A DNA stretch of 64,000 nucleotides from a virus (taxonomy: Duplodnaviria > Caudoviricetes), in IMG/VR virus record IMGVR_UViG_3300012974_000540, positions 29,343 through 93,342 of that record; one strand, written 5' to 3'. Below the pieces are notes generated by a model. It searched no databases. It saw only the letters and a list, made by a program, of their open reading frames with translations, and had not been told where the DNA came from. This document shows positions 274 through 17,933 of this stretch, piece after piece. The position numbers were made by a program, and so were the translations under genes. Position 1 is the first letter of the stretch. Each line of letters begins with the position of its first letter.

Positions 274-279
274 GTTTGT

Positions 280-323
280 CTCCTCATGCCGGCGGAGGTG
301 CCGGCGACCCCAGAGGGGTTTCG
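280..323 (-). ncRNA. type II hammerhead-like motif R1 (A3 core)
   Basis: CGAAAC CCC UCU GGG GUC GCCGGC ACCUCC GCCGGC AUGAGGAG. Confidence 0.75.
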
Positions 324-324
324 C

Positions 325-696
325 TCATCGCTCGCCGAAGCGGCACCCCACCTCGGCGCTCAGGGCCTCGGCGTGCAGCCCGGCATAGTCGAGCTGCAGG
401 GGGGTGTAGTTGCTGAAATAATCGCGGTCGGTGTCGCCCGGCCGCAACGTCAGGAAGGCCATCACCGCCGCCACCGTCGCGTCGCTGTCGATCGCGTGGA
501 TCGGCGGGCAGCTAAAGTCCTCGCCCATGAACAGCGGGGCGTCCAGGCCGCTCTGCGTGAGCCGGTAGCCGATGACCCATCGGCCGTTCTGGGACCGGCC
601 CGTGTCAAAGAGCGTCAGCGTGAAGGACGGCCCCATGCCCCGCCTGTAGGGGTGGAACCGAACAAAGCGGATCGGTGTGCCCGAGGGCGTGTCCAT
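325..696 (-). CDS. hypothetical phage protein (FLTLRPGDTD motif)
   Basis: start re-assigned to MDTPSG behind the R2 SD; stop 1 nt from R1. Confidence 0.75.
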   Translation of the reverse strand: MDTPSGTPIRFVRFHPYRRGMGPSFTLTLFDTGRSQNGRWVIGYRLTQSGLDAPLFMGEDFSCPPIHAIDSDATVAAVMAFLTLRPGDTDRDYFSNYTPLQLDYAGLHAEALSAEVGCRFGER

Positions 697-702
697 GTTT
701 GT

Positions 703-743
703 CTCCTCATGCCCAAAGACGGGCGACCCCCGGAGGGGTTTCG
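703..743 (-). ncRNA. type II hammerhead-like motif R2 (A3 core)
   Basis: CGAAAC CCC UCCG GGG GUC GCCC GUCUUU GGGC AUGAGGAG. Confidence 0.75.
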
Positions 744-749
744 GTAGGG

Positions 750-1262
750 CTAGCCTCCGGCCGCGCTGGCCTCGACGGCCTGGCGGTAGATCGCCAGCGC
801 CTCGGCGAAGGGCAGGCAGTTCAGGATCTGGTCGCAGTCCCGCAGCGTGGCGCGCGCCTTCTCCGGGTTCCGGGTCCACTGCTCCAGGGTCGCCTTCGGC
901 AGCGACTTGGTCTCGTAGATCGGGGTCTGCCCCTGCTTCGTGAACAGGATGCGCCGCTTCAGGGCTGTCCGCAGATCGCGCTCCGTCAGCCAGTCGCTCA
1001 GCAGCTCGTCCACCAGGATCTCGCCGGTTTGCGGCATGGTGTGCGTTCGGCCGCCCATGTCGTAGGACAGGGGAGGCAGCGTGGCCGCATAGGCGTTGAG
1101 CCGTTCTTCCAGCTCGCGCGGGTGGATCGAGGTGGGGCCACCATGGCCCCGGTTGCTGGCCTCGCCCGCGCGTTTGCCATCGACATAGATCGATGCCGTG
1201 AAGCAGCGCGTCTCCTCGCTCATGGAGGCGACGTACTGCACGTTCCGCAGCTCGATTTTCAT
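750..1262 (-). CDS. conserved hypothetical phage protein (SEET..F.A..Y.DGK..N.GHGG)
   Basis: MKIELRN start behind R3. Confidence 0.75.
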   Translation of the reverse strand: MKIELRNVQYVASMSEETRCFTASIYVDGKRAGEASNRGHGGPTSIHPRELEERLNAYAATLPPLSYDMGGRTHTMPQTGEILVDELLSDWLTERDLRTALKRRILFTKQGQTPIYETKSLPKATLEQWTRNPEKARATLRDCDQILNCLPFAEALAIYRQAVEASAAGG

Positions 1263-1271
1263 GGGGTGTCT

Positions 1272-1319
1272 CTCATCAAGCCCGCGATGGTGCGGGCGAC
1301 CTGACAGCGTCAGGTTTCG
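1272..1319 (-). ncRNA. type II hammerhead-like motif R3 (U3 core)
   Basis: CGAAAC CUGAC GCU GUCAG GUC GCCCGC ACCAUC GCGGGC UUGAUGAG. Confidence 0.8.
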
Positions 1320-1600
1320 ATGCGTACGTTCCTTTCCGGGGTGATGCGGCTCTGCGCATCCCGCCAGGGGCGGTCGTCCTTCCAGACGCGGCGGTTGTAG
1401 TGCCACTGCGCCAGGGTGAGGCGGGCATAGCCCTCCAGCAGCGGCTGGGTGCGGATGCCGCCATCGGCCGCGGTGAAATGCTCCGTGGCGACCTCCTCGC
1501 CCGCTTTCGTGCAGCGGATCTGGATCCAGCCGTCCTGGTAGTCACCGTGGACGGTGCGGCCCTCGTCGTCCGCCGCCTGGGCGGTGAAGGACGTGCTCAT
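1310..1600 (-). CDS. hypothetical protein
   Basis: MSTSFT start overlaps the upstream stop (ATGA); its own stop lies inside R3. Confidence 0.6.
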   Translation of the reverse strand: MSTSFTAQAADDEGRTVHGDYQDGWIQIRCTKAGEEVATEHFTAADGGIRTQPLLEGYARLTLAQWHYNRRVWKDDRPWRDAQSRITPERNVRIET

Positions 1601-1953
1601 GCCTCGTGCTCCAATTCGTCGTCTTCCGGCAGGCCGGCTGCGAGCTTCTGGACCATCAGCCGCATGTTGTTTGCGAGGATGGTCTGCTCGCGCCGCAGCC
1701 GGTCCAGGGCGCCGATGGCGGCTTGCAGCTCCTCGGACAGGCCGGCGCTGAATCGCTCCAGCCGCCTGATGCGAGAGCTTTGCACCTGCTTGTCCCCGAT
1801 CAGGAGCGCCAGTGCGGCGGCGATCTGCTTCGCCTCCGTCTCCGGGTCGGGGCCGGGCTGATAGATCTCGATCAGCTCGGGCCGTCCGGACTGGATGGCG
1901 AGCGCGACCGCGCCCGGCACCGTGAGGTCCGTTGTGAAGATGGATGAGCGCAT
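1597..1953 (-). CDS. hypothetical coiled-coil protein
   Basis: 118 aa ORF behind the R4 SD. Confidence 0.7.
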   Translation of the reverse strand: MRSSIFTTDLTVPGAVALAIQSGRPELIEIYQPGPDPETEAKQIAAALALLIGDKQVQSSRIRRLERFSAGLSEELQAAIGALDRLRREQTILANNMRLMVQKLAAGLPEDDELEHEA

Positions 1954-1958
1954 GTGGT

Positions 1959-2006
1959 CTCCTCATGCCCGCGATGGTGCGGGCGACCTGACGGTGTCAG
2001 GTTTCG
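1959..2006 (-). ncRNA. type II hammerhead-like motif R4 (A3 core)
   Basis: CGAAAC CUGAC ACC GUCAG GUC GCCCGC ACCAUC GCGGGC AUGAGGAG; nearly identical to R3. Confidence 0.75.
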
Positions 2007-2227
2007 GTCTGTCGCCGCCTCAGCTCATCTCGAAAGATGCTGAGGTGCAGGTGGCAGAGCTGTCGGTTTATCCGCCGGCCCAGGTGAACACCGAGCACCG
2101 GCGCGATGTCCGGCAGGGCCAGGGTCTCCTGCGTGCTCCGGATATGCCAGCGCAGGCGCGCTTTCGGCCAGAGCCGCGCGGATGCGCGCAGCTCCTCCGC
2201 GTGTCGGCAGGCCGCCGCATCGCTCAC
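1997..2227 (-). CDS. hypothetical protein
   Basis: 76 aa, GTGA-coupled to the upstream ORF, stop inside R4. Confidence 0.5.
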   Translation of the reverse strand: MSDAAACRHAEELRASARLWPKARLRWHIRSTQETLALPDIAPVLGVHLGRRINRQLCHLHLSIFRDELRRRQTET

Positions 2228-2610
2228 GCGCTGGCCGCCGCCGGGAAGGGGTCCGTCAGGGGGCTGAAGATCTCCGCGTCGCCCGAGGCGCTGTCGGCCT
2301 CCGGGCGCGTCCAGGCGAAGAACCCCATCGGGTCACCGCCCGGGCGCGAATTGGCGGTCGCCTTGTCGAAGCCCGGCGGCTTCCGCTGGGTGCGGTTCGC
2401 CATCGTGGTGGAGATCATGAAGCTCCGGTGCCGGTTCGCCGCGTGAACGTGCTCCCCGAAGGCCTGCACCTTCTCGGGCAGCTCGGAGATGCGGCGGATG
2501 CCGACGATCTCCTGCGGCGGGCGGCTGCCCAGCGAGAAGCTGGTCTTGAAGCCCACGTCGGTCCGCACCGCGGGGAGGGCGGTGAGCTTGATCAGATAGG
2601 TTGTCGCCAA
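2224..2610 (-). CDS. hypothetical protein
   Basis: TTG start behind the R5 SD. Confidence 0.65.
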   Translation of the reverse strand: MATTYLIKLTALPAVRTDVGFKTSFSLGSRPPQEIVGIRRISELPEKVQAFGEHVHAANRHRSFMISTTMANRTQRKPPGFDKATANSRPGGDPMGFFAWTRPEADSASGDAEIFSPLTDPFPAAASA

Positions 2611-2618
2611 GGGTCTTA

Positions 2619-2668
2619 CTCCTCATGCCCGCGAATGTGCGGGCGACCCCCGAGGAGAGGGGGTTTCG
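2619..2668 (-). ncRNA. type II hammerhead-like motif R5 (A3 core)
   Basis: CGAAAC CCCC..GGGG GUC GCCCGC ACAUUC GCGGGC AUGAGGAG. Confidence 0.75.
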
Positions 2669-3040
2669 TCAGCCCTTGGCGGGCTGGGTCATCAGGGCGA
2701 TGGCCTCCTCGGCCAGCCTGATGACGGTCTCGTTCCAGGCGCGCTGCTCCTCCAGCGTGTAGGGATACCAGCTCGCGGGGCGCAGCCACACGCCATCCAC
2801 CAGACGCAGGTACATGGCGTCGTCGGGAGCGACGTCGTCCGGCATCAGCGGGGCGTCGTCGTCCGCCTTGTCCTGCTCCGGCGGGTCGTCCTGGTTGTCG
2901 TAGTAACCCGGCGGCGGCGTCTCGGGGCTGAGCAGTTCCGGCCCGCCTGGCACGCTGCCGTCCAGGTCGTCGATCCAGCGGCCCGTGGCGCGGCTGCCCC
3001 GGATGATCTCCTGCAGCCTGGCGACGATCGCTTCGTCCAT
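2669..3040 (-). CDS. acidic hypothetical protein
   Basis: 123 aa; stop directly abuts R5; SD from R6. Confidence 0.7.
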   Translation of the reverse strand: MDEAIVARLQEIIRGSRATGRWIDDLDGSVPGGPELLSPETPPPGYYDNQDDPPEQDKADDDAPLMPDDVAPDDAMYLRLVDGVWLRPASWYPYTLEEQRAWNETVIRLAEEAIALMTQPAKG

Positions 3041-3046
3041 GTTTGT

Positions 3047-3094
3047 CTCCTCATGCCCGCAGGTGCGCGGGCGACCGCCACGGGGGCGGTTTCG
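3047..3094 (-). ncRNA. type II hammerhead-like motif R6 (A3 core)
   Basis: CGAAAC CGCC CCCGU GGCG GUC GCCCGC GCACCU GCGGGC AUGAGGAG. Confidence 0.75.
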
Positions 3095-3098
3095 ATGC

Positions 3099-3989
3099 TC
3101 AGGGCCGCACGATGGTCATCGGCGGTGAGTGGCCGCCGCCGTGGATGGCGGTGGCACGCACCGGGATCTGGCGGCCATCTTGCAGCGTTCGGGTGTGTGC
3201 GCGGCGCCAGTGCGGCGCAACGGTGGCGCCTGTCGGTGCTCCACGCTGCCTGGATCTCTCCGCCCCAAGCTGGCTGAGCGAGAGGACGCGGATGCTGGAG
3301 AGAGGCCGTAAGCGCCCCCTCTCCCGACCCCGGTTCATCTCCCTCCAGGCCTGCGTTTCCGGGGCGTCCCGCACCTCGACCTCGCCATCTCCCCGGCCGC
3401 TGTCCGCCAGGGCGGTTGCGAGGGCGATGCAGTACAGGACCTGCTCCTTGTAGGCTCTCAGGTCCTGCTCCCGTTCCTCGGGTGTCTGCGGGTCGTCCTT
3501 CTCTGGCAGGCCAGGCATTTCCAGACGGACGACGGCGAGCGCCTGCATGGCGAATGAGTAGCGCCAGCCGGAGGTGATGAGATACCACGGCGACGTCCGT
3601 CCGGTGACGGGATCGACGTCGCGCCATGCCTCGAAGCACGTCCAGCTTCCATCGGTCTCGTCAGCTTGGAGGAACAGGAGAACCTGCTCCACGATGTCCG
3701 GGAACTCAGGATCGGTGGTGCCGGTATTCAGCATGAAGACGCATTCGGGGTGCGGCAGCGGCGGGGCCTGATCCAGCGTGATCTGCCCACCCTGCATGGC
3801 GTGGACGCGCTCCACCACCACCGGGTCCGCGAAAGCGAAGACCGGCACGGTCAACCAATCCTGCGGAAGCCGGATCTCCCGATACTCGCCGTGGGTGCCG
3901 AACGACACGCGGAGACGACCCTTGCGGGCCGCCTCCACGAATGCCGAAAATGCGTCCGGGAATGCCGGAACCTTGTCGGCGGCGGGCAT
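3099..3989 (-). CDS. hypothetical phage protein with C-terminal PHWRRAH motif
   Basis: MPAADK start coupled (TGATG) to the upstream stop; VAPHWRRAHTR is a motif seen in phage proteins. Confidence 0.65.
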   Translation of the reverse strand: MPAADKVPAFPDAFSAFVEAARKGRLRVSFGTHGEYREIRLPQDWLTVPVFAFADPVVVERVHAMQGGQITLDQAPPLPHPECVFMLNTGTTDPEFPDIVEQVLLFLQADETDGSWTCFEAWRDVDPVTGRTSPWYLITSGWRYSFAMQALAVVRLEMPGLPEKDDPQTPEEREQDLRAYKEQVLYCIALATALADSGRGDGEVEVRDAPETQAWREMNRGRERGRLRPLSSIRVLSLSQLGAERSRQRGAPTGATVAPHWRRAHTRTLQDGRQIPVRATAIHGGGHSPPMTIVRP

Positions 3990-4342
3990 CACGCGACATC
4001 CTCGGCCGTGTCGAGGCCGGCGTCGTCGTAGAGCTCTTTCGCCAGGCGGCCGTGCCCGAAGAACGCCATCACCTCCTCGATGGTGGTGCAGACGGCGCCT
4101 TCGTGGCGGGTGCGCTCGCCCTGCCACTGCGAGAAGCCGACGCGCTCGCAGACATACTTTCCGCCCTCGGTTTCGTAGAGCGCCAATGCCTGCCTGCGGC
4201 CGGTGCTGCCCGAGAAGTCCGGGCTGGCGGTGTCCCAGGAATTGCTGGCGGCACCGAGGAGCCATCCCTTGAACCGGATGGGCCGCTCCTTGTCCCGCTC
4301 CAAGACGTGGGCCCTGGCTGGGGGCTTGGTGTCGTCGGTCAT
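3989..4342 (-). CDS. hypothetical phage protein (LYET.GGKYV motif)
   Basis: MTDDTK start with GAGGA SD after a multi-hairpin leader. Confidence 0.7.
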   Translation of the reverse strand: MTDDTKPPARAHVLERDKERPIRFKGWLLGAASNSWDTASPDFSGSTGRRQALALYETEGGKYVCERVGFSQWQGERTRHEGAVCTTIEEVMAFFGHGRLAKELYDDAGLDTAEDVA

Positions 4343-4440
4343 GATGTTTCCTCGCCCGAAGACGCAGTCGGGCCTCTGCTGCCGCACAGCGGCACAAGAA
4401 GGGTGCCCCGGCGTCGTGGCCGGGCACAACCCTTTCGGTT

Positions 4441-4485
4441 CTCGTCAAGCCGGCGTGATTGCCGGCGACCCCCGTGGGGGTTTCG
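4441..4485 (-). ncRNA. type II hammerhead-like motif R7 (U3 core)
   Basis: CGAAAC CCC CACG GGG GUC GCCGGC AAUCAC GCCGGC UUGACGAG. Confidence 0.8.
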
Positions 4486-4486
4486 C

Positions 4487-4966
4487 TCAAGCGTGCTGCT
4501 CGTCCAGATCGTCCGTCCCGATCACATCGGAGACGAAGACATCCTTCAGCTCCGGTTCGGGCCAATAGGAGCCGTGGTTGGAGGCCATGTCGTCCATGGC
4601 CTGGCCGATCTCGCCGTTGAGATTGGCCTCGACGATGGCGATCGCTTCCTCGGCGCTGCTGGCCTCGACTTCGACGGCGCCATCACCGGTGCTTTCCGGA
4701 TAAAGGAACTCCATGCAGATCTGATAGAATTGCGAGCCGGAGCCGCCGTTCAGCTCCCGCAGGGCATCCTCGTAATCGAGCAGGACCAGGGGATGCTGGC
4801 GCGGCAGGGCCAGCGCGGGCTCGCTGTCGTGGGTCAGATAGGCGTGGCGGCCGGTCAGGGCAGCCGCGGCCGCCTTGCGGACGGCGCGGGGGCCGTAATC
4901 GGCCGCGATCTCCTCGAAGCTGCGCAGGCGGCGGGTGCCGGGGCGCAGAACAAAGATGTCGGACAT
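4487..4966 (-). CDS. hypothetical protein, paralog of 5350-5835
   Basis: shares RKAA.AALTGRH and A.SAEEA motifs. Confidence 0.75.
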   Translation of the reverse strand: MSDIFVLRPGTRRLRSFEEIAADYGPRAVRKAAAAALTGRHAYLTHDSEPALALPRQHPLVLLDYEDALRELNGGSGSQFYQICMEFLYPESTGDGAVEVEASSAEEAIAIVEANLNGEIGQAMDDMASNHGSYWPEPELKDVFVSDVIGTDDLDEQHA

Positions 4967-4974
4967 CGCGCGTT

Positions 4975-5019
4975 CTCGTCATGCTGGCGGGATTGCCAGC
5001 GACCGCCGGGGCGGTTTCG
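4975..5019 (-). ncRNA. type II hammerhead-like motif R8 (A3 core)
   Basis: CGAAAC CGCC..GGCG GUC GCUGGC AAUCCC GCCAGC AUGACGAG (compensatory change in stem I). Confidence 0.75.
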
Positions 5020-5020
5020 G

Positions 5021-5290
5021 TCAGCGCGTTTTTTTGCAGAGCCGTGGGGCCTGCCGGGGCGGGATGCCGTCCACCACCTCGACCTCCGCCTCCGTGCTGA
5101 TCCACAACCGCGCGCCGCAGGAGAGCGGCTTGTCGGGTGAATAGACGATGCGGCAGGGGCCATGGATGACCAGCTCGCTGGCGTAGCGGCGGTGGCGTCC
5201 CTCTCGGATGATGACCGGCGGCTCCCGCTGCTCCGGCGCGACATGCATGTTGCGCCGGATGCGGTGCTGATAGACGTGAATGAGCTTCAC
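5021..5290 (-). CDS. conserved small phage protein (YSPDKPLSCGARLWI)
   Basis: 89 aa between R8 and R9. Confidence 0.7.
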   Translation of the reverse strand: MKLIHVYQHRIRRNMHVAPEQREPPVIIREGRHRRYASELVIHGPCRIVYSPDKPLSCGARLWISTEAEVEVVDGIPPRQAPRLCKKTR

Positions 5291-5298
5291 GGAGGGGC

Positions 5299-5345
5299 CT
5301 CTTCAAGCCGGCGGATGTGCCGGCGACCGCCCTGCGGCGGTTTCG
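5299..5345 (-). ncRNA. type II hammerhead-like motif R9 (U3 core)
   Basis: CGAAAC CGCC GCAG GGCG GUC GCCGGC ACAUCC GCCGGC UUGAAGAG. Confidence 0.8.
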
Positions 5346-5349
5346 CTGT

Positions 5350-5835
5350 TTAGATCGGGTTGATGTCCCCGATGGCGTATCTGACCGGATAGGGGTTCGG
5401 GTAGTCGTGCATTTCGTGCGCGGACTCCAGAGCCTCCGAGACGTAGCCGTTGTGGTCGTTGTTGGCTTCCTGCAGCGCCTCCTCGGCGCTGTTGGCGCGG
5501 ATCGGCACGCGACCTTCGACTTCCGTGGCCGGGAACTCGAAGGTGACATAGACCATGTAGCGGCGCTTCTCGCCGTCCTGCCTCGTCAGCTCCTCCACGA
5601 CGTCGCTGTGGGCGACGTAGCGCAGGATGTGGTTGCGCGGCAGGATGACGGTCTGCGGCGCGTTGGCCTGGCGCTCCCGGTCGTCCACCAGCAGGTGGCG
5701 CCCGGTCAGCGCGGCCATCGCCGCCTTGCGGGCGACCGCATCGCCAAAGCTGACGCGGATCCACTCAAAGCTCTGCGCGGTGCGCAGCCCGTTGCGGAGG
5801 ACGATCACGTCGCCCTCGGTTTCAAAGACGGACAT
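5350..5835 (-). CDS. hypothetical protein, paralog of 4487-4966
   Basis: MSVFETEG start behind R10. Confidence 0.75.
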   Translation of the reverse strand: MSVFETEGDVIVLRNGLRTAQSFEWIRVSFGDAVARKAAMAALTGRHLLVDDRERQANAPQTVILPRNHILRYVAHSDVVEELTRQDGEKRRYMVYVTFEFPATEVEGRVPIRANSAEEALQEANNDHNGYVSEALESAHEMHDYPNPYPVRYAIGDINPI

Positions 5836-5845
5836 GGTGTGCATG

Positions 5846-5891
5846 CTCTTCATGCCGGCGGGATTGCCGGCGACCCCTCTACGGGGTTTCG
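5846..5891 (-). ncRNA. type II hammerhead-like motif R10 (A3 core)
   Basis: GCGAAAC CCC GUAGA GGG GUC GCCGGC AAUCCC GCCGGC AUGAAGAGC. Confidence 0.75.
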
Positions 5892-6268
5892 CGATGCGAC
5901 AGCGAGAGCGCCAGATTGATGTGGGTGATCTGCTGGTGCAGTTCCAGGATCCAGGGCGCGTCGAGGGGTTCCAATGTCTCGGCATTGCCCTGGACGGTCG
6001 CCTGCCGGAAGGCGCTGTCGCGCTCATCCTCCAGCAGGTTCCGCACATCCATCAGCGCCGCGCGGGTGGCCGCCACGAAGTGGCCCGGCGGACCCAGCAC
6101 CCGGTGCAGCAGCGCGGCGAAGGTCTTCGAGAGGTGCAGCGTCCCGCCCCTGGCGGAGTGGTAGGCGGCCTCGGCCCGGCCTGGGCCATCCGCCAGCCGG
6201 TAGCCCGGCGGGCAGCCGGCCTGCCAGAAGCGCTGGCGGTCCATCATTATCTGCATGTCTGCATGCAT
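5879..6268 (-). CDS. hypothetical protein
   Basis: 129 aa between R10 and R11. Confidence 0.6.
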   Translation of the reverse strand: MHADMQIMMDRQRFWQAGCPPGYRLADGPGRAEAAYHSARGGTLHLSKTFAALLHRVLGPPGHFVAATRAALMDVRNLLEDERDSAFRQATVQGNAETLEPLDAPWILELHQQITHINLALSLSHRETP

Positions 6269-6280
6269 GCATGCGGTCTC

Positions 6281-6322
6281 CTCGTCATGCCAGTGAAGCT
6301 GGCGACCCCTCGCGGGGTTTCG
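6281..6322 (-). ncRNA. type II hammerhead-like motif R11 (A3 core)
   Basis: CGAAAC CCC GCGA GGG GUC GCCAG CUUCA CUGGC AUGACGAG. Confidence 0.75.
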
Positions 6323-6341
6323 GTTTCGCGGGCCTTTGGGG

Positions 6342-6806
6342 TCACGCGGTGGCGGGTGTCGTCGCCAGCAGCATGGCCTTCAGGTCGTCCCAGCGGGAGC
6401 AGGTGTAGCCGGGCAGGCGATGCTGGATGTCCTCCTCGGCCGACGCTATCGCGTTGCGCAGGCAGCGGAGGCGTTGTTCGGACGGCTCCCGGAGGTAGCT
6501 GGCCCAGTCGTCGTGCAGGCACTGCATCAGGAGCAGGATGGTGCTATCGGCGCCGAGGAAGCGCGGCGCCAGGTAGCCGCGGACCTGCAGCCCGCCCTTG
6601 CCCTCCATGTAGGGCTGGTAGAGGCTCGGGGAGATCAGCGCGCCCAGGGCGCACATGAGTCCGTCCGGCCCGCGATAGAGGCAGTCGCCGCTTTCGTTGA
6701 CGCTCGGGCGCCCCTGATCGAGCAGGTGCGCCACGATGGCGTCGATGGCGGCGGTGGTGGCCTCGCGCTGGGTCTGGCCACCGGGGTCGATGTTGGTTTC
6801 GGACAT
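6342..6806 (-). CDS. conserved phage protein (HLL.QG.PS..C.YR..G..CA.G.LI..Q..HD)
   Basis: MSETNID start with AAGGA SD. Confidence 0.7.
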   Translation of the reverse strand: MSETNIDPGGQTQREATTAAIDAIVAHLLDQGRPSVNESGDCLYRGPDGLMCALGALISPSLYQPYMEGKGGLQVRGYLAPRFLGADSTILLLMQCLHDDWASYLREPSEQRLRCLRNAIASAEEDIQHRLPGYTCSRWDDLKAMLLATTPATA

Positions 6807-6846
6807 GGATATGTCGTCCTTTTCATCCGGCGAAGGTGCCGGAACC

Positions 6847-6882
6847 AAAAGAGGCCGCCCAACGGTGATTGGGCGGCCTCTT
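6847..6882 (-). terminator. rho-independent terminator-like hairpin next to a degenerate repeat (R12, about 6818-6846)
   Basis: AAGAGGCCGCCCAA/TTGGGCGGCCTCTTTT followed by GGUU CCGGC ACCUUC GCCGG AUGAAAAGGA. Confidence 0.6.
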
Positions 6883-6884
6883 GG

Positions 6885-7325: not shown

Positions 7326-7334
7326 GTGTGTATG

Positions 7335-7379
7335 CTCTTCAGGCCGGCTGGAGTGCCGGCTACCCCATGCGGGGTTTCG
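7335..7379 (-). ncRNA. type II hammerhead ribozyme R13, fully canonical core
   Basis: CGAAAC CCC GCAU GGG GUA GCCGGC ACUCCA GCCGGC CUGAAGAG: CUGANGA, GAAA and GUA triplet. Confidence 0.85.
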
Positions 7380-7414
7380 TGTCGCGCCATGGATGGCGAG
7401 CATGCGACGTGGCG

Positions 7415-7520
7415 TAGCTGATATGGTGTTAAATTCTTAAAATTCAATGCGTTGTTGGCATGGCTTCCGCCCAGGCCCCATCCCGCACCTTCACATCGAT
7501 GTTGCATCCGATGTGATTTC
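7415..7520. promoter_or_regulatory. AT-rich divergent promoter region with TCACATC-N12-GATGTGA operator (7491-7516)
   Basis: AT-rich island between divergent transcription units; motif recurs at 12071, 13062 and 22956. Confidence 0.55.
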
Positions 7521-9725: not shown

Positions 9726-9849
9726 CCCCCTTCCAGGAGCGCGCCGCGTGCCCTGCCTCCACCGCAGCCTCCGCCACCGCCGCCGTCCCCATGCCGGGGA
9801 GCGGGAGCCGGGCCGTGCCCGTGCCGCCGCCGCCGGGAGGGGTGCCACA

Positions 9850-10134
9850 GTGACGGCGCTGTTTCCGGAGCGCCCGGCCCGCCGCGGCCCGGCGCCGGCC
9901 GGCGAGTTCGGGGCCGAGCTGCAGGCGGTGGGCGCCCAGCTCGCGGTCGCCCTCACCCGCTCCCCCTTGCTGCCGCGCGACGTGGCGCGGCGCGCCAATG
10001 TCTCGATGCCCCGGCTGGAGGCGATCCTCGCCGGCCAGTGCGAGGACGTGACCGTGACCGAGGTCGCGGCCCTGGCCGCTGCCTGCGGCATGCGGATGTC
10101 GGTCCGCTTCGAGCCGACCCGGCAGCCCTTCTGA
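9850..10134 (+). CDS. XRE-family HTH protein
   Basis: DVARRANVSMPRLEAILAG..VTVTEVAALAAACG. Confidence 0.7.
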   Translation: MTALFPERPARRGPAPAGEFGAELQAVGAQLAVALTRSPLLPRDVARRANVSMPRLEAILAGQCEDVTVTEVAALAAACGMRMSVRFEPTRQPF

Positions 10135-10144
10135 GGACCCCCTT

Positions 10145-10711
10145 ATGGACGCCCTGACCGCCATCCTCACCCGCAATGACTCCGGCGGGCCCTACGACGC
10201 CACGGTGATGCCGCTCAGCATGGAGCGGGCGCTGCTCGGCCTGGTCGGCGACGCCGCCCGGCTGACGGAGCGGCTGCGGCGCGCCCGCTTCGAGGGGCGT
10301 CCTATTGACTGGGTCTTCGCCGACCAGCGCGCGGCCGAGATGCTGCGCTGCCTGGCGCTCTACGCCCGTGCCCGGGGCAAGGATCTCACCTTCCTCCAGG
10401 ACATCCTGCTGCGGCAGCTGGGCGAGGTGCTTCCGCCGCCCCCGCCCCCGCCGCCACCGCCGCCGCCCGCCCAGCCGGCCCTGCCCATCGCCCTGCCGGC
10501 GCGGCGGGCGAGCACGCGCCGCCTCGGCAACCCGGGCGAGCGGAACGGCTCGGCCAAGCTGACCTGGGCGAAGGTCGCCAAGATCCGCGCCAGCAAGGAG
10601 GCGGGCGGCAAGGCCCGCGCCATGGCCGAGGAATGGGGCGTCAGCCTCGCCACCATCCACGCGATCCTGGGCGGCCGCGCCTGGGCCGAGAAGGATTCAC
10701 CCCGCGCATGA
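10145..10711 (+). CDS. hypothetical protein with poly-Pro linker and HNH-associated C-terminal HTH
   Basis: GERNGSAKLT..MAEEWGVSLATIHAI..GRAW. Confidence 0.6.
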   Translation: MDALTAILTRNDSGGPYDATVMPLSMERALLGLVGDAARLTERLRRARFEGRPIDWVFADQRAAEMLRCLALYARARGKDLTFLQDILLRQLGEVLPPPPPPPPPPPPAQPALPIALPARRASTRRLGNPGERNGSAKLTWAKVAKIRASKEAGGKARAMAEEWGVSLATIHAILGGRAWAEKDSPRA

Positions 10712-10968
10712 ACGACACTGAGATCCAGGCCGAGGTGGGCGGCGTCGCCGCCGACCGTCTCCGCTCCATCATCGAGCGCGTCGAGCGCCTGGAGGAGGAG
10801 CGCAAGGCGCTCGCCGACGACATCAAGGACATCTTCACCGAGGCGAAGTCGGCCGGCTTCGAGGCGAAGGTGATCCGCCAGATCATCCGCCAGCGGAAGC
10901 AGGAGCCCGCCGAGGTGGAGGAGCAGGAGACCCTGCTCGACCTCTACCGCCGCGCCCTGGGGATGTGA
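10708..10968 (+). CDS. gapR: GapR (DUF2312) nucleoid-associated protein
   Basis: AADRLRSIIERVERLEEERKALADDIKDIFTEAKSAGF..ETLLDLYRRALGM. Confidence 0.92.
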   Translation: MNDTEIQAEVGGVAADRLRSIIERVERLEEERKALADDIKDIFTEAKSAGFEAKVIRQIIRQRKQEPAEVEEQETLLDLYRRALGM

Positions 10969-10969
10969 G

Positions 10970-11143
10970 ATGGGGCGTCGTCGTGCGAGCGGCATGAAAG
11001 ACCCCTTCGCGGAGGGCTGGGACGCCTGCTGCGAAGGGGCCGGGCTGGAATCATGCCCCTACCCGGTGGCGAGCGGAGATGCCGCCCTCTGGATGGATGG
11101 CTGGCACGAGGCCGTGCATGAGAGGTTGTGCCAGGCGGCATGA
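10970..11143 (+). CDS. Rmf-like small protein (57 aa, absent from the ORF track)
   Basis: own translation: ..PFAEGWDACCEGAGLESCPYP..LWMDGWHEA, matching the Rmf pattern G..A..G..CPY..W..GW. Confidence 0.65.
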   Translation: MGRRRASGMKDPFAEGWDACCEGAGLESCPYPVASGDAALWMDGWHEAVHERLCQAA

Positions 11144-11382
11144 TCGCGGCATCCGGGCCGGCCGCCTCCGTGTGGCTGGTCCGGCGGGGGTCCGGCGCTG
11201 GGCCGGTTGTGGGCCTCCTGCTGCGGGAGATCCCGCCCGGCCAGGAGGCGCTCTGCCTGCGGCGGCAGGAGGGGCTGGAGCGGCATCCGCTCGACTGGGT
11301 GGCCCGCGAGGTGCATCTGCAATGCGGCGCCGCGCTCGACGGCCTGCTGGGCTTTCTGCCGACGCCCCTCGATGTCGGCTAA
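11140..11382 (+). CDS. hypothetical protein
   Basis: ATGA-coupled ORF. Confidence 0.5.
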   Translation: MIAASGPAASVWLVRRGSGAGPVVGLLLREIPPGQEALCLRRQEGLERHPLDWVAREVHLQCGAALDGLLGFLPTPLDVG

Positions 11383-11840
11383 AAGACGATGATGGGATTC
11401 CCGGTGAGGGGCACCTGCAGCATCCGCAGCAGGTCGGCGTATTCCGTCACCGACCGCACCACGGCGTAGCGGTGGCCGAAGGCTTCGACGGCGGCCTGGA
11501 ACTGCTTCTGCTCGCGGCTCTGGTAGGTGCGCTCGGTGAGCAGGCCCTGCGGTAGCTTGACCTCGACGAATGCGACGGCGCCGTGGGTGACCAGGATCAG
11601 GTCGCTGGCGCCCGGCAGCACGCCGGCATCGAGGAGGCGGGCGGCCTCGGCCCTGGCCCTGCGGCCGCCGTTCGGCACCGCGAAGAGCAGGGCGCGCGGG
11701 TCGGCGAAGCGGCGGTGGAACTCGACCAGCGAGGTTTGCAGGTCGTCCTCGGCGTGACGCGGCGCCCGCCGGCGGCCCAGGATCGTGGAATGTTCGGCCA
11801 AGCCCCCTCGCGGCTTCACATCGCCCTTGCCGAGCTTCAC
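11379..11840 (-). CDS. VRR-NUC domain nuclease
   Basis: EDDLQ..FAVPNGG..GVLPGASDL..FVEVK..EQKQF. Confidence 0.85.
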   Translation of the reverse strand: MKLGKGDVKPRGGLAEHSTILGRRRAPRHAEDDLQTSLVEFHRRFADPRALLFAVPNGGRRARAEAARLLDAGVLPGASDLILVTHGAVAFVEVKLPQGLLTERTYQSREQKQFQAAVEAFGHRYAVVRSVTEYADLLRMLQVPLTGNPIIVF

Positions 11841-12073
11841 ACGGAGCGGCTACCGATGTGAAGAGACGCAGCTTCCGCGATCGGCAGCAAGGCTCGTTCC
11901 AATCGGCGCACCGTGGCGAGGGATGGATTCCAATCCGGATCTTCCATGTGACGCAGCGTGTTGGCGTGGACACACGCCTTCTCGGCGAGGACGCATTTCC
12001 GGAGCCCTGCGCTCCGGAAGGCCAGGCGGATCTCGGAAAGGACGGCGTCGATGCGGGGCGTGGAACTCTGCAT
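11837..12073 (-). CDS. Cro-like HTH regulator
   Basis: LAEKACVHANTLRHME..WNPSLATVRRLE; divergent from the CI-like gene. Confidence 0.7.
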   Translation of the reverse strand: MQSSTPRIDAVLSEIRLAFRSAGLRKCVLAEKACVHANTLRHMEDPDWNPSLATVRRLERALLPIAEAASLHIGSRSV

Positions 12074-12100
12074 GACGATGTGACCTATCACATCGTCATG
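12071..12100. promoter_or_regulatory. 13-bp perfect inverted repeat operator between cro-like and cI-like genes
   Basis: CATGACGATGTGA-ccta-TCACATCGTCATG. Confidence 0.7.
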
Positions 12101-12130
12101 TGACGCGGAACAAGACCAGGGGGTCGTTGA

Positions 12131-13009
12131 GTGATGGTAGTGAAGGCGTCGCAGCCTGCCAGGAAGAATCCTTCCGTGGGGGCGCGCGCGGAGGCGAAGC
12201 CTGTGGTCGTGCAGGTGAGCGCGGCCGAGGCGCGGCTGAGTGATTACCTCTCCGACGAAGAGGTGGAGCGCGACCGGCAGGGGATGCGCGACACGATGAA
12301 GCGCCTCGACCTGGTGCCGAACACCTGGGCGCGGGCAGCCGGGTTCCGCAACGCCAATGCCCTCTACAACTGGTTGTCGGGCCGCACCCGGAGCCTGAGC
12401 CTGGATGTGCGGGAGCGGCTGGCGGCGGTGCTGCCCGGCGAGACGGCCTGGAGCATCATCGGGCGGAAGCCGCCGCGGGCGCGGAAGAACGCGGTCGATG
12501 CGGTGATGCGGCAGGTGCCGATCCGCACGGCGGCGCGGGCCAGCCTCTGGCGGCGCGTCTATGAGCTGCCGAAGCGGGAGCGGGGCAGCATCCTCGCCGT
12601 CGCGATGCCCGACAACGACATGGATATCGCCGTCCGCATCGACGACGACAGCATCAACGAGCTTTATTCCGCCGGCTCCTATGCCCTGGTGCATAGCCTC
12701 CGGCCCCAGGATCGGCTGCGGAACGGCGATGTCGTGCTGGTGGAGCGGCGCCGTGTGCGCGCCGAGGCCGAGACGGTCGAGATCACGCTGCGCCAGGTCG
12801 TGGTGACGAAGCAAGGGGCCGTGCTGCGCTGGCGCAGCCTGAATCCGGACTTCCAGGGGGACGTGCCCATGCCCTGGCCTTACGAGGGGGGGAAGCCCTT
12901 CACCAACCTGCAGGAGCCGAAATTCGCGATCCACAAGCGGTCGGTCTATCGGATCACCGGCGTGGTGGTCACCGTGCAGACCATGGCGCGGCGCATCTTG
13001 AACGGCTGA
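12131..13009 (+). CDS. CI-like repressor (HTH plus S24-like C-terminal domain)
   Basis: WARAAGF..NALYNWLSGRTRSL; DDSINELY..G..LRNGDVVLVER..ITGVV. Confidence 0.7.
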   Translation: MMVVKASQPARKNPSVGARAEAKPVVVQVSAAEARLSDYLSDEEVERDRQGMRDTMKRLDLVPNTWARAAGFRNANALYNWLSGRTRSLSLDVRERLAAVLPGETAWSIIGRKPPRARKNAVDAVMRQVPIRTAARASLWRRVYELPKRERGSILAVAMPDNDMDIAVRIDDDSINELYSAGSYALVHSLRPQDRLRNGDVVLVERRRVRAEAETVEITLRQVVVTKQGAVLRWRSLNPDFQGDVPMPWPYEGGKPFTNLQEPKFAIHKRSVYRITGVVVTVQTMARRILNG

Positions 13010-13047
13010 CAAACCCTCTGGATTGACCCGCCTGGGCGGTGTTTTTA

Positions 13048-13088
13048 TTGACTTTCCACCTTCACATCACATAGCTGTGTGATGTGAA
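13048..13088 (+). promoter_or_regulatory. sigma70-like promoter overlapped by TTCACATCACA/TGTGATGTGAA operator
   Basis: TTGACT at 13048; inverted repeat 13061-13088. Confidence 0.6.
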
Positions 13089-13104
13089 GAATGGGTGGTG
13101 CCGC

Positions 13105-13740
13105 ATGGCTCGGAAGCGTCGCTACGTGAAGTCGAGGACGATGACGCTGGTGCGGGACAAGCAGAGCGGCATCCTTGTCGCCCACGCCGGCAGCGACTAC
13201 GGCGCCCAGCACGAGGTGCGCCGTGCCCGTGGGGAAATCGAGATCCGCGACCGTGAGGTGACGAATTCCGGCGTGCTCGTCGCGCGCGGCGCCTATGTCG
13301 TGGCGCCGGGTGCGGTCGAGCGCCTCGCCCGCGACGGCCTGCTCTGCGATCCGCGCGACACAGCGGCGAACCGGGCCGCCGAGACGCGGCGGCGCCTGAT
13401 GGCGGCCGAGACGTTCCGCGTCAGCGCCGAGATCGCCCAGGTGCGCCCGCGCATGGTGGCCCGCTACGACTCATGCATGTTCAGCGGCGCCATGGCGGTG
13501 ATTCCCGACGTCATGGCGCATGCCCGCTCCCGCCTGAACCGCTATGTGCCGGTCATGGGCTGGTGCCGCTTCCTGACGCTGCTGAACGCGGTGGTCTTCG
13601 AGTGCGCGACCACGCCGCGCGAGGACCGCATCATCGCCGAGGCGCTGCGGCTCCTGGCCGACCACCTGGACGCAAAAAACCCCCGAGGTGATACCTCGGG
13701 GGCGGGGCACTCAGCCGAGCAGCGGATGCAGGCAGCCTAG
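13105..13740 (+). CDS. hypothetical protein, possible late-gene regulator
   Basis: 211 aa; position after repressor; LR.LADH C-terminus. Confidence 0.5.
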   Translation: MARKRRYVKSRTMTLVRDKQSGILVAHAGSDYGAQHEVRRARGEIEIRDREVTNSGVLVARGAYVVAPGAVERLARDGLLCDPRDTAANRAAETRRRLMAAETFRVSAEIAQVRPRMVARYDSCMFSGAMAVIPDVMAHARSRLNRYVPVMGWCRFLTLLNAVVFECATTPREDRIIAEALRLLADHLDAKNPRGDTSGAGHSAEQRMQAA

Positions 13741-14097
13741 CTGCGACAGCGACTGGAGGTCGCGCAGGACGGTCTGTCCGAGCGCGACGGCGAAGGGGGT
13801 CACGTCGGCCTCGATGATGTCCAGCAGGCACTGGAGCTTCATCACCAGCTCGCGGCCGTTCTGCGCGGCGGCCGCGGCCATCTCCCAGTCGAGCACGGTG
13901 AGGTCGGCCATGATCTGCTTGGCCTCGGGGCTCTCGGGGTCGAGGTCGCCCCAGGCGAGGCGCATCTCATTGCCGCGGCGGAGCAGGTCGGGGATGGAAT
14001 CCGGCACGACGGGCAGGCGGCTCAGGGGGGCGACATCCGGGAAGGTGACGCTGGAGGGCAGGGAGGTCGTAGGCACCGCGGGCAGAGTGGGGGTCAT
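13711..14097 (-). CDS. hypothetical protein
   Basis: MTPTLP start with GGAGAGG SD. Confidence 0.55.
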   Translation of the reverse strand: MTPTLPAVPTTSLPSSVTFPDVAPLSRLPVVPDSIPDLLRRGNEMRLAWGDLDPESPEAKQIMADLTVLDWEMAAAAAQNGRELVMKLQCLLDIIEADVTPFAVALGQTVLRDLQSLSQLGCLHPLLG

Positions 14098-14252
14098 GGA
14101 CCTCTCCAGGGGGACGGAGTTTCGGAACAATCCGCGAACTCACGTTGCGGCGCCGTGGTGAAATTGCCTCGAAGGGGTTGATCACGCAAGCGTGAAATTC
14201 AACCGACCCGAAATGTGCCTTGGAAAAGAGCCAGCCCGAGTCTGTAAACACA

Positions 14253-14293
14253 GAAACGCCCACCAGCCTCGGGGAGAGGCTGATGGGCGTTTC
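14253..14293. terminator. long hairpin, possible bidirectional terminator
   Basis: GAAACGCCCA-CAGCCTC/GAGGCTG-TGGGCGTTTC. Confidence 0.5.
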
Positions 14294-14739
14294 GTCGTTC
14301 AGTCGTCGGGGAGGGTTTAGGCTTAGAAGGCATGAAGCCTCCTGTGTTCGGGCAGGGGTGCGGGGCCCTGGCCTACTCGGGGCCTGCTCCTGGCGCTCGT
14401 GGGGTCCGCGAGCACCGGGAATCTCTATTGATGTCTTCCCTCCGGAAGTCGGGCCGTTGTCCAGGCGGCGGTCGTCTAGTCCAGCTCGTCGGGTGCCAGG
14501 CGACGTGACGGGATCTGGCAGTGCGGCGTGTGTGGGCCGATGCCGGGCATCCCAGCGTCGGCACACCTCCCAAGGACTCCAGATGGGACGCCCTGGACGG
14601 GGCGGCCACCTTCGCTCGACCCTGCGGGGATTGCTTGATCGGGGTTAGGGGAACTGGTTGGCGGCGGTGTGCCGGTGACAGATATATGGCGACGCCAGCG
14701 CTGTTTTTCAACGCGGGCGTTTCGTTTCTTCTCAGGCCA

Positions 14740-15210
14740 TTACAGGGAAATCGGCGAATAGAAGCCGAGCCGGGCGGCGTGCGCATCGAAGGGCCGGCAG
14801 CCGGTCTTGATCCATTGGATGATGTGCTGGAGGTCGGTGCCCATCGGGAAGCCCAGGAAGGCTTCCTCGGTGAGGCCGTCGCCGCCCAGCTCGATCTCCT
14901 GCAGCGCATCCCAGACGCGGATCGCTTCCGGGAGGCCGAAGGGGCCGTGGCACCACTCGTCGGGCACCAGCTGGTGCTCGCGCCAGAAGGCGCCGGTCTC
15001 ATCCTGCACGACCTGCTGCCCGTCGATCCGCAGGGGCGTCGGGGTGTTCCCGGCGCTGTAGGGGTGGCCATCCGTGTGCGTGTCGATCTGCGGGATGCGC
15101 CCATGATCCGTCACCAAGAAGGTGGCTTTGCTCACGGGCGCGCATTGGTGGGCCACGAGGACCAGGCCCGAGATCAGATCGCCGGTCGGCGAGCGCAGAA
15201 GGGTGTTCAT
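14740..15210 (-). CDS. hypothetical protein (cassette)
   Basis: MNTLLRS start behind R14. Confidence 0.65.
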   Translation of the reverse strand: MNTLLRSPTGDLISGLVLVAHQCAPVSKATFLVTDHGRIPQIDTHTDGHPYSAGNTPTPLRIDGQQVVQDETGAFWREHQLVPDEWCHGPFGLPEAIRVWDALQEIELGGDGLTEEAFLGFPMGTDLQHIIQWIKTGCRPFDAHAARLGFYSPISL

Positions 15211-15219
15211 GGGTCTGCT

Positions 15220-15264
15220 TTCTTCAAGCCGGCGGGAATGCCGGCAATCCCGGAACGGGATTTC
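15220..15264 (-). ncRNA. type II hammerhead-like motif R14 (U3 core, AUU triplet)
   Basis: GAAAU CCCG UUC CGGG AUU GCCGGC AUUCCC GCCGGC UUGAAGA; compensatory U-A at pair 15.2-16.2. Confidence 0.7.
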
Positions 15265-15638
15265 TAGCTCTGCACCAGCGCGGTGACGGCGATCACGCGC
15301 TGGCGCTGGTCCTTCACGGGGGCGAATTGCGGCCCCGATCCGGGAAATACCACGTCCGGCCGGCTCATGCCCCGCTGGCGGAGCAGCAGGGCGGTGATCT
15401 GGGAGACGATGTGGAAGGTCCCGGCGCGCGGTGGCGGCAGGCCGACCACGTCGCCGTAGATCGGTGGCGGCTCGATCCGCACGCCGTCCGCCTCGGCCGG
15501 CTGGCCGCAGGGGTGGACGACGACGCGCGCCACGGTGCCGCTCGGGGGCACCATGCGCATGCCGGTGGGGGTGGCGAGCATGACCGGATGTGGGGTGAGA
15601 TTCACGAACCGCTCGCAGGCGGTCGCTGGTGTCGGCAA
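15264..15638 (-). CDS. NLTPH-motif phage protein
   Basis: FVNLTPHPV..VPPSGTVARV..GLPPPR.G..IVS..RPDVVFP. Confidence 0.7.
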   Translation of the reverse strand: MPTPATACERFVNLTPHPVMLATPTGMRMVPPSGTVARVVVHPCGQPAEADGVRIEPPPIYGDVVGLPPPRAGTFHIVSQITALLLRQRGMSRPDVVFPGSGPQFAPVKDQRQRVIAVTALVQS

Positions 15639-15648
15639 AGGTCGGTTC

Positions 15649-15695
15649 CTCTTCATGCCGGCGGGATGGCCGGCGACCGCCAGGTGGCGGTTTCG
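15649..15695 (-). ncRNA. type II hammerhead-like motif R15 (A3 core)
   Basis: CGAAAC CGCC ACCU GGCG GUC GCCGGC CAUCCC GCCGGC AUGAAGAG. Confidence 0.75.
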
Positions 15696-15700
15696 TTTTA

Positions 15701-16012
15701 CTACCACTCGAAGGTGGGCAGTCCTTCCACATCCTCGCCGTCGCCATGCAGGTTGATCCACCAGCAATCGTGCTGGCGGGCCAGCCGCATGATCCCGAGG
15801 AAGGCGTCCGACATGCCGCGCTGGCGCAGCTCGGCGTCGGTTTCGCGGGCGCTGTCGCTCGGGCAGTTGATGAACCACCCGATCTCGTGGTGGATCACCC
15901 GCACCGGGAAGTCATGGCTCTCCCGGTCGAGGGCCTGGAGGCGGTCGTTGTCGGCCTTCGGGATGTGGCCGGTGGAGATGTTCAGGAAGTGACGAATGGC
16001 GTCGTCGGCCAT
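15701..16012 (-). CDS. DUF5983-like protein
   Basis: LNISTGHI..GWFI..LARQHDCWWINL..DG..EGLPTFEW. Confidence 0.65.
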   Translation of the reverse strand: MADDAIRHFLNISTGHIPKADNDRLQALDRESHDFPVRVIHHEIGWFINCPSDSARETDAELRQRGMSDAFLGIMRLARQHDCWWINLHGDGEDVEGLPTFEW

Positions 16013-16019
16013 GGTTTGT

Positions 16020-16063
16020 CTCCTCATGCCCGCGGGGTGCGGGCGACCGCGAGCGCGGTTTCG
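16020..16063 (-). ncRNA. type II hammerhead-like motif R16 (A3 core)
   Basis: CGAAAC CGC..GCG GUC GCCCGC ACCCC GCGGGC AUGAGGAG. Confidence 0.75.
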
Positions 16064-16112
16064 TGGATGTGGAAAAGGCCCCCCTGCGCGCGGGGCGACA
16101 GGGAGGCCTTGG

Positions 16113-16394
16113 TCACGCCCGCCGGCGAAAGCCGACGAGATGCTGCAAGCAGTCGTCCAGGCTTCCATGCGCGATCCAGATCTTCGTCTGGGCCGGCTTG
16201 TGCGCCACGCCCTCGGCCGTCGCCAGGAAGTCCGTGTCCCAGAGGGAGAGGAACTCCAGGCCGTAGCCGAGGGTGCCGTGGCGGTCGGCCTCGATGTCGT
16301 GGGTGGCGAGCATGCCGCACAGGTGGCGGCCGCCGTACACGGTTCCGGGCTTCATCGCGTTTTGGACGTTCTGCAAGGTTTGCGGTGAGAGCAA
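16113..16394 (-). CDS. hypothetical protein (cassette)
   Basis: TTG start behind the GAGGAG SD of R17. Confidence 0.55.
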   Translation of the reverse strand: MLSPQTLQNVQNAMKPGTVYGGRHLCGMLATHDIEADRHGTLGYGLEFLSLWDTDFLATAEGVAHKPAQTKIWIAHGSLDDCLQHLVGFRRRA

Positions 16395-16404
16395 GGGGTT
16401 TCTC

Positions 16405-16448
16405 CTCATCGGCGGCGCGGATTGCGCCGTAGCCCCGAGGGGCTTTCG
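16405..16448 (-). ncRNA. type II hammerhead-like motif R17 (CCGAUGA core, CUA triplet)
   Basis: CGAAAG CCC..GGG CUA CGGCGC AAUCC GCGCCG CCGAUGAG; compensatory G-C at pair 15.2-16.2. Confidence 0.75.
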
Positions 16449-16491
16449 GAGAAGCGAGCGGCCCACCGGGGCGGGCCGCTCGACACGTTTG

Positions 16492-17805: not shown

Positions 17806-17933
17806 GGATAGTCTCCGTTTTTGGTATCAGCATCCTTGCTGATGTCTATTATTTGGGACTTATTCTAATCATTTCAATAGATAAGCGTCTGAATTTGCTC
17901 ATTAGTTGAGCAATACTTGGAGTATATTGTCCA

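Follow-up and report, generated by a model that had tools for sequence, protein, structure and literature searches.

The question raised by this locus is whether a hammerhead ribozyme can forgo the C3-G8 pair of its core, and whether the strand that carries position 3 may also serve as the ribosome-binding site (RBS) of the next gene. The locus lies in a 64,000-nt window (the whole stretch of DNA analysed), bases 29343-93342 of the 93,342-bp IMG/VR virus record IMGVR_UViG_3300012974_000540; the phage is labelled G000 in the comparisons. Sixteen type II hammerhead-like units were located on its minus strand, from C11.1 at 16448 through G10.1 at 280, each reading C-GAAA / hairpin / U-H / hairpin / N-U-G-A-N-G-A / G. 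This order is a circular permutation of the type II hammerhead (11.1, G12-A14, stem III, H17, stem I, positions 3-9, 10.1). With a covariance model trained on these units, 27 were identified in the whole phage, 11 of them upstream of window base 1. The explanation favoured here, with about even confidence, is that they are functional but probably slowed (attenuated) operon-processing ribozymes, neither dead nor riboswitch-like, the cleavage itself being predicted.

The units are real. A relaxed hammerhead pattern matches the window 13 times, against 0.09 matches expected from 100 shuffles, and under the covariance model the 16 units score 46-70 bits while the next-best match in the window reaches 14 bits. 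Stems I and III are paired in 94.8% of cells, with compensatory changes, compared with 82% after column shuffling and about 40% when slid. The type II topology, in which loops cap stems I and III and stem II is left open, was parsed in 27 of 27 units.

A preliminary description of this DNA, made from the letters alone, had reported A at core position 3 in ten of the 16 copies, U in four, C in one and CCGAUGA in the last; these counts were reproduced exactly (Table 1). Among all 27 units, position 3 is A in 16, U in seven and C in four, and never G, and the free position N7 is G in 12. The 3-8 combinations comprise 16 A3-G8, six U3-G8, three C3-G8 with U4, one U3-A8 and the CCGAUGA unit, which leaves 23 units without C3-G8 or U3-A8. 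A Watson-Crick 3-8 pair is found in R7316, R-541, R-6930 (the last unit of the long array) and R-5910. The copy R13 of the preliminary description (R7316), presented there as the only canonical one, is indeed the sole fully canonical core in the window and heads the long array; beyond the window, however, the 11 upstream units include two further C3 units and the U3-A8 unit. The latter, R-5910, is the lone unit with G8A, and its U3 supplies the known compensating pair (PMC3088659).

The rest of the core is nearly invariant. G12, A13, A14, A15.1, U16.1, G5, A6 and A9 are present in 27/27 units, and C11.1, U4, G8 and G10.1 in 26/27. H17 is C in 24, A in two and U in one, never G, and the cleavage triplet is GUC in 24 units. 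In the 16 A3 units all 12 other core positions are unchanged although the stems and loops have diverged. Conversely, the three most alike hairpin pairs (91-95% identity) differ at N3 (A/U, A/U and C/A), so that N3 changes readily next to constrained neighbours. The demand for C at position 3 appears, in this compact subclass, to be loosened to “not G” (A, U or C). The absence of G mirrors the idea of an inhibitory C3-G17 pairing (PMC3884650), because a G3 could pair with C17. G7 occurs only together with A3 in G000 (12/4 versus 0/11, Fisher p = 1.8e-4). Since CUGAGGA is common in the sister phage G001, this association looks like shared descent of a AUGAGGAG-plus-leader module and not like a structural rule. 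Avoidance of GGCC restriction sites was considered as a cause of C3 loss after ...GGC and rejected, as the observed/expected ratio of GGCC is 0.92 and the site is not avoided.

The 3' strand of the core also lies where a Shine-Dalgarno (SD) sequence is expected, with a purine stretch about 4-10 nt before the start of a real open reading frame (ORF). SD energies were scored against an assumed generic 16S anti-SD tail, which may not be that of the host. In 12 of the 27 units, all of them A3 with G7, the entire SD GAGGAG falls within G5-G10.1, at -8.6 kcal/mol or stronger (-11.5 kcal/mol for the extended SD of R-1710) and with a spacing of 4-10 nt; in about five more the SD begins at G8 (GA-N-GAGGAG). 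The G5-G10.1 hexamers of the window are GAGGAG (6), GAAGAG (4), GAAGAA (1), GACGAG (3) and GAUGAG (2, one of them in the CCGAUGA unit). Three to five units have a weak SD, and the matches of R7316, R5827 and R4956 amount to -2 to -3 kcal/mol, hence GAAGAG and GACGAG alone are poor SDs. The earlier proposal that the core doubles as the SD is thus borne out for only part of the array. The start codon stands 6-12 nt past A9 (none was found near R-541), and in about half of the units the upstream stop codon stands 0-6 nt ahead of C11.1, so that the unit is essentially the entire intergenic region. No paper was found in the literature in which a hammerhead core, or a stem II, acts as the SD for the following gene.

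Stem II is reduced to 0-2 bp in 24 of the 27 units and has 6-7 bp in three (R16383, R-4598, R-5910). As R-4598 and R-5910 belong to the long array, minimal and conventional stem II units coexist in one operon. Loop I showed no consistent pairing with either tail in the 27 units, hence no tail pseudoknot was found. Its composition is skewed (2% G, 46% C, often A-N-N-U-C-C), and no pairing partner was found for it. A circular-RNA or hybrid model would need the 3' tail of one unit to form stem II with the 5' tail of the next; this was ruled out, as such pairing also amounts to 0-2 bp and does not exceed that inside a unit.

The occurrence of hammerhead arrays between phage genes was established in 2011 (PMC3088659). 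Prophage arrays self-cleaved both in vitro and in E. coli, cleavage was demonstrated for three arrays, and the processing of long transcripts into single-gene mRNAs was already proposed for phage and prophage arrays (Perreault et al. 2011, PMC3088659). The units of G000 resemble these clustered type II hammerheads (RF02276) in topology, in the core letters other than position 3 and in placement between single genes of a phage operon. The RF02276 core (U4 G5 A6 N7 G8 A9, G12 A13 A14, A15.1-U16.1, H17 not G) is matched in 26-27 of 27 units at each position. Most units lack the C3-G8 or U3-A8 pair of RF02276, as well as its stem II of at least 2 bp and/or pseudoknot between loop I and the 3' tail. 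The usual phage type II unit reads GC-GAAAC ... CUGAUGA-GC-AGCC and has C3 (C3-G8 in 90/96 units of the comparison scan), a stem II of at least 2 bp (GC/GC), an AGCC-type tail-loop I pseudoknot and a separate downstream SD. In contrast, the G000 units combine a stem II of 0-2 bp, no tail pseudoknot, an SD in the core, C3 in 4/27 and a score below the Rfam gathering score.

Core changes in phage hammerheads have precedents. The U3-A8 covariant is tolerated in nature (PMC3088659, PMC4209133) and is shared by one G000 unit and two or three units of G001. The A6C hammerhead of phage Bcep176 prefers Mn2+ (PMC7151607), and the saltern HHmeta and HHphage ribozymes have insertions next to C3 (Perreault 2011, PMC3088659). 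Changes at that place give slow, ion-dependent cleavage, Mg-hungry in HHmeta. In the literature, U3-A8 is the only natural 3-8 variant that was found described, and no description was found of an A3-G8 or U3-G8 mismatch as the majority state of whole arrays. The latter, with the core otherwise intact and the letter specific to the lineage, appears to be new.

Relatives were sought in IMG/VR with a pattern scan that left position 3 open, followed by the covariance model. In the sister phage G001 (96.6 kb), 22 units precede a terminase of 44% identity, at the genome position that they have in G000; their position 3 is mostly C, with four C3-A8, three A3-G8 and two or three U3-A8 units in addition. 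In G002 (IMGVR_UViG_3300047168_000120; 95.5 kb; terminase 41% identical), 13 units at 3321-17135 include no C3, seven AUGAGGA and two G3; 11.1 is often U or A and H17 often U. The bacterial contig NZ_JBNXUO010000021.1 (Falsiroseomonas sp. CW058) has a prophage array of 15 minimal type II units at 92-9911, at the contig start. Fourteen of them have U3 (UUGAGGAG or UUGAAGAG) directly ahead of start codons, and most have the triplet AUC and a conserved C15.2/A16.2 mismatch. Judging by this array, phages of this kind may plausibly have their hosts among the Acetobacteraceae. A metagenome scan gave three soil contigs that carry a single A3 unit apiece; they are near-identical and too alike to be informative. 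Arrays like that of G000 are rare. Ten terminase-based relative records scanned with the covariance model contained no such units, and all that a second IMG/VR pattern scan contributed were canonical C3 units whose stem II has 4 bp.

Canonical arrays provide the counterpart. G004 has a 6-bp stem II and C3 in 9/9 units; G005 (IMGVR_UViG_3300033551_000003) has a stem II of 2-3 bp, an AGGA/UCCU loop I-tail pseudoknot, a separate UAGGAG and C3-G8 in 16/18. The latter, a 64.8-kb phage fragment in which 19 kb (43-62 kb) hold no fewer than 20 canonical type II hammerheads, is a useful canonical comparator array. In the arrays with a minimal stem II and a merged SD, C3-G8 is present in 4/27 units of G000, 11/20 of G001, 0/8 parsed units of G002 and 0/15 of Falsiroseomonas. 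Overall, C3 is found in 22/52 units with a stem II of 1 bp or less versus 112/130 with 2 bp or more. C3 is thus lost together with stem II and the pseudoknot, in arrays where SD and core have merged. The prevailing letter at position 3 depends on the lineage, the arrays being C-dominant, A-dominant or U-dominant. The preliminary description had named randomness at position 3 across homologous phages as the outcome that would speak against it. The outcome is intermediate: A is not conserved across lineages, yet G is almost absent.

These observations can be joined into the following mechanism. Type II modules would occupy the spaces that separate the small accessory genes in two leftward operons, in the order upstream stop, CGAAA, hairpin III, triplet, hairpin I, N3-UGA-N7-GA, G10.1 and next start codon. 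Self-cleavage after H17 would cut the long transcript into single-gene mRNAs, each ending at its 3' side in hairpin III with a 2',3'-cyclic phosphate and beginning at its 5' side with a 5'-OH hairpin I followed directly by the RBS, with consequences for mRNA stability and translation. With stem II reduced to 0-2 bp and no pseudoknot, the 3' strand of the core would be free to double as the SD, N7 = G yielding GAGGAG. According to published mutational data, A3-G8 and U3-G8 units should cleave slowly. Attenuation, which the preliminary description had offered as one of three readings, fits best among them, given that the other core positions are held, N3 is never G and published C3 mutants are of low activity (PMC9901934), the cleavage rate being a matter of prediction. 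Since the core has been held while the hairpins diverged, catalysis would still be under selection in this phage.

Several points weigh against this reading. The copies share descent, and counts over the 27 units are therefore counts of non-independent events. The Rfam search of the window gave no Hammerhead_II (RF02276) match at the gathering score of 37 bits, only five sub-threshold matches of 19-26 bits. In a comprehensive mutagenesis of a type III hammerhead every single mutant of the CUGA turn had low activity and only C3G:G8C restored it (PMC9901934), so the A3-G8 units could be nearly inactive. A tested type II ribozyme with a one-bp stem II indicates that a single G10.1-C11.1 pair can suffice for natural activity, but it relies on a 6-bp pseudoknot between loop I and the 3' tail, the shortening of which cost 20- to >100-fold in rate (Perreault 2011, PMC3088659). 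The G000 units are without this support, which that ribozyme needed for fast activity, and thus two handicaps coincide, the missing C3-G8 pair and the missing stem II/pseudoknot support. Finally, several G002 cores are partly deleted (GGA only or UUGA only) while the hairpins, SD and A-rich leader are retained, hence cleavage appears dispensable, at least there.

The same facts can be taken further, to the view that most A3 and U3 units no longer cleave and that selection acts on a two-hairpin plus RBS intergenic module in which the hammerhead core is fading. Such a module would insulate and stabilise cistrons or guide host RNases. The low activity of C3 single mutants (PMC9901934) and the loss of stem II and pseudoknot agree with it, and so do degenerate 5' halves in some Falsiroseomonas units. 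G002, with its partly deleted cores, 11.1 no longer C and hairpins plus AUGAGGAG retained, would be the next step. Against it stand the 12 unchanged positions of the A3 units, whose stems and loops have diverged, and the exclusion of G at N3 and H17, which is relevant to catalysis only. CGAAA, U16.1-H17 and U4 serve no SD or hairpin module, and the pattern is therefore unlike the neutral decay of a dead ribozyme. We consider this view a serious competitor for G000 but clearly less probable than attenuation, and rank it second; G002 would nevertheless indicate that a lineage can go on to lose catalysis.

A third view, ranked below both and judged improbable, is that the fold was exapted as a translational switch or protein-binding element, hiding the SD until refolding, cleavage or factor binding, with position 3 tuned for that. 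It draws on the position of the SD in the core, by which the ribozyme tertiary fold and 30S binding must exclude each other. However, the SD is predicted to be unpaired with a mean probability of 0.57 in the uncleaved RNA versus 0.53 in the 3' cleavage product, stem II has 0-2 bp in 24/27 units, and no candidate binding protein was identified. An SD-sequestering alternative structure released by cleavage or refolding was not found, except in R16383, R-4598 and R-5910, where the purine run with the SD lies inside the 6-7 bp stem II and predicted cleavage would release that helix. Engineered aptazyme RBS switches and RiboJ-type insulators work in a comparable manner, cleavage freeing or standardising the 5' end and RBS of the downstream gene. 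These three units likewise hold the RBS in stem II, whereas the engineered devices are designed, with the RBS in a helix, and the G000 array has it in the catalytic core strand. No consistent complementarity to the SD was seen across the 27 units in loops I and III or in the 5' flank; three units account for the loop III-SD complementarity (p ~0.02), and pairing of the 5' flank with the SD falls below that of shuffles. The 7-nt loop III UCUCCUC of R2600 and R-3597 is the exact complement of GAGGAG and could form an SD-masking pseudoknot that cleavage would separate. As a general role, the translational switch suggested in the preliminary description has no support from secondary structure, the predicted SD accessibility being unchanged by cleavage.

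The genes between the units turn over nearly completely, since only two of the 27 downstream proteins have homologues in the arrays of G001 and G002, and the units are mosaic, with near-identical hairpins linked to different core-plus-leader modules. Together this suggests cassette exchange with breakpoints near stem I. From the same two observations it could be argued that the repeats are mainly DNA-level recombination points shuffling accessory-gene cassettes, the RNA features being secondary. This we regard as very improbable: the conserved letters coincide exactly with the hammerhead core, covariation of the stems as RNA helices is confined to one strand, the conserved blocks of 5-8 nt are too short for homologous recombination, and shuffling may be a side effect rather than the function.

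The window has a GC content of about 69% and encodes a terminase, a Mu F-like head protein and a Ro60/TROVE protein, which identify a tailed phage; among cultured phages the nearest terminase is that of Acetobacter phage phiAO1 (43% identity). The units form two minus-strand arrays, one of four units (16448-15220) and one of 23 units from 7379 leftwards, separated by plus-strand genes from about 7447 to about 13740, as judged by the GC content at third codon positions (GC3). The ORFs downstream of the units have a GC3 of 0.81-0.97. The scan of region 1-7450 located neither an internal sigma-70-like promoter nor a convincing terminator, which fits a polycistronic transcript. R7316, previously called promoter-proximal, would be so only as the first unit after the switch to plus-strand genes, as the sigma-70 scan gave no promoter there. 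Pfam and PHROGs assign only DUF5983 and families of unknown function to the proteins flanked by units, and no RtcB ligase was found in the phage.

Two further observations concern the edges of units. An 11-bp GC-rich hairpin, GAGCGGCCCGC...GUGGGCCGCUC, stands directly 5' of R16383, and the 126-nt stretch as a whole folds with z = -3.45. In three units a second, partial CGAAA(A)C occurs a few nt upstream of the real copy (CGAAACCGAAAC, CGAAAACGCGAAAC, CGAAAACCGAAAC), which resembles a trace left by slippage or recombination at the unit's 5' edge.

Table 1. Hammerhead-like units and accompanying features of phage G000 (window coordinates unless marked as genome; SD, Shine-Dalgarno sequence; CM, covariance model score; MFE, minimum free energy structure)
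Feature	Position	Strand	Core	Triplet	Predicted cut	SD	Start codon	Remarks
R16383	16405..16448	-	CCGAUGA (16406-16412; C3 but C4)	CUA	16430/16429	inside stem II	TTG 16394	stem II 6 bp, UUCUCC/GGAGAA; CM 46 bits; MFE is the full three-way junction
R16001	16020..16063	-	AUGAGGA (A3)	GUC	16045/16044	GAGGAG	ATG 16012	CM 65 bits; DUF5983 in downstream protein
R15630	15649..15695	-	AUGAAGA (A3)	GUC	15675/15674	AAGAGGAA	TTG 15638	
R15201	15220..15265	-	UUGAAGA (U3)	AUU			ATG 15210	A10.1/A11.1 mismatch
R7316	7335..7379	-	CUGAAGA (C3)	GUA	7361/7360	weak	ATG 7325	R13 of the preliminary description
R6262	6281..6322	-	AUGACGA (A3)			GAGGAG from G8 on	ATG 6272	additional CGAAAC immediately upstream
R5827	5846..5891	-	AUGAAGA (A3)			weak	ATG 5835 (or 5844)	
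R5280	5299..5345	-	UUGAAGA (U3)			AGAGG	GTG 5290	
R4956	4975..5019	-	AUGACGA (A3)			weak	ATG 4966	
R4422	4441..4485	-	UUGACGA (U3)			separate, AAAGGG	TTG 4429 or GTG 4427	top Rfam Hammerhead_II score, 26 bits
R3028	3047..3094	-	AUGAGGA (A3)			GAGGAG	ATG 3040	
R2600	2619..2668	-	AUGAGGA (A3)				TTG 2610	loop III UCUCCUC, fully complementary to GAGGAG
R1940	1959..2006	-	AUGAGGA (A3)				ATG 1953	hairpins 94% identical to R1253 (U3)
R1253	1272..1319	-	UUGAUGA (U3)				ATG 1262	
R684	703..743	-	AUGAGGA (A3)			GAGGAG	ATG 696	
R261	280..323	-	AUGAGGA (A3)	GUC	306/305	GAGGAG	ATG 273	CM 69.8 bits
R-3597	genome 25767-25816	-						loop III UCUCCUC
R-4598	genome 24764-24811	-				inside stem II		stem II GAGAGAC/GUCUCUC; near far end of long array
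R-5910	genome 23452-23496	-	UUGAAAA (U3-A8)			inside stem II		stem II GGAUCA/UGAUCC; near far end of long array
Second CGAAA(A)C copies	6322-6328; genome 28866-28876, 26974-26983	-						
GC-rich hairpin	16449-16482	-						11 bp
Promoter-like site	17848..17877	-						TTGAAA-18-AATAAT; consensus match only; could drive the operon with R16383 to R15201
Terminator-like hairpin	14253..14293	-						18 bp + U-rich tail; consensus match only; downstream of four-unit array
Second terminator-like hairpin	13679-13703	-						consensus match only; downstream of four-unit array

Overlapping with the favoured explanation is a bolder and rather doubtful possibility, close to the unrecognised active variant of the preliminary description, namely that a minimal type II subclass (one-bp stem II, no pseudoknot, SD in the core) cleaves efficiently without C3-G8 and needs only A, U or C at position 3. 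A cellular factor, a particular metal ion or co-transcriptional folding beside the ribosome could then replace the tertiary support. If so, a single 7-nt sequence would mechanistically link cleavage by the ribozyme to the initiation of translation.

The C3-G8 pair has been regarded as a fixed active-site requirement, and the natural exceptions reported so far are rare, U3-A8 being compensatory. The arrays described here, with A3-G8 or U3-G8 and with catalytic residues constrained, comprise the 27 units of G000 and the 15 of Falsiroseomonas, with more in two sister phages. Should these units cleave, search tools would be relying on too strict a hammerhead consensus, one that misses them at the Rfam gathering score, and the 3-8 pair would be dispensable in some scaffolds. 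If they cleave slowly, they would be a natural example of rate-tuned ribozymes setting the processing of an operon. Either way, a ribozyme, a 3' stabiliser, a 5' stabiliser and an RBS would be compressed into about 45 nt.

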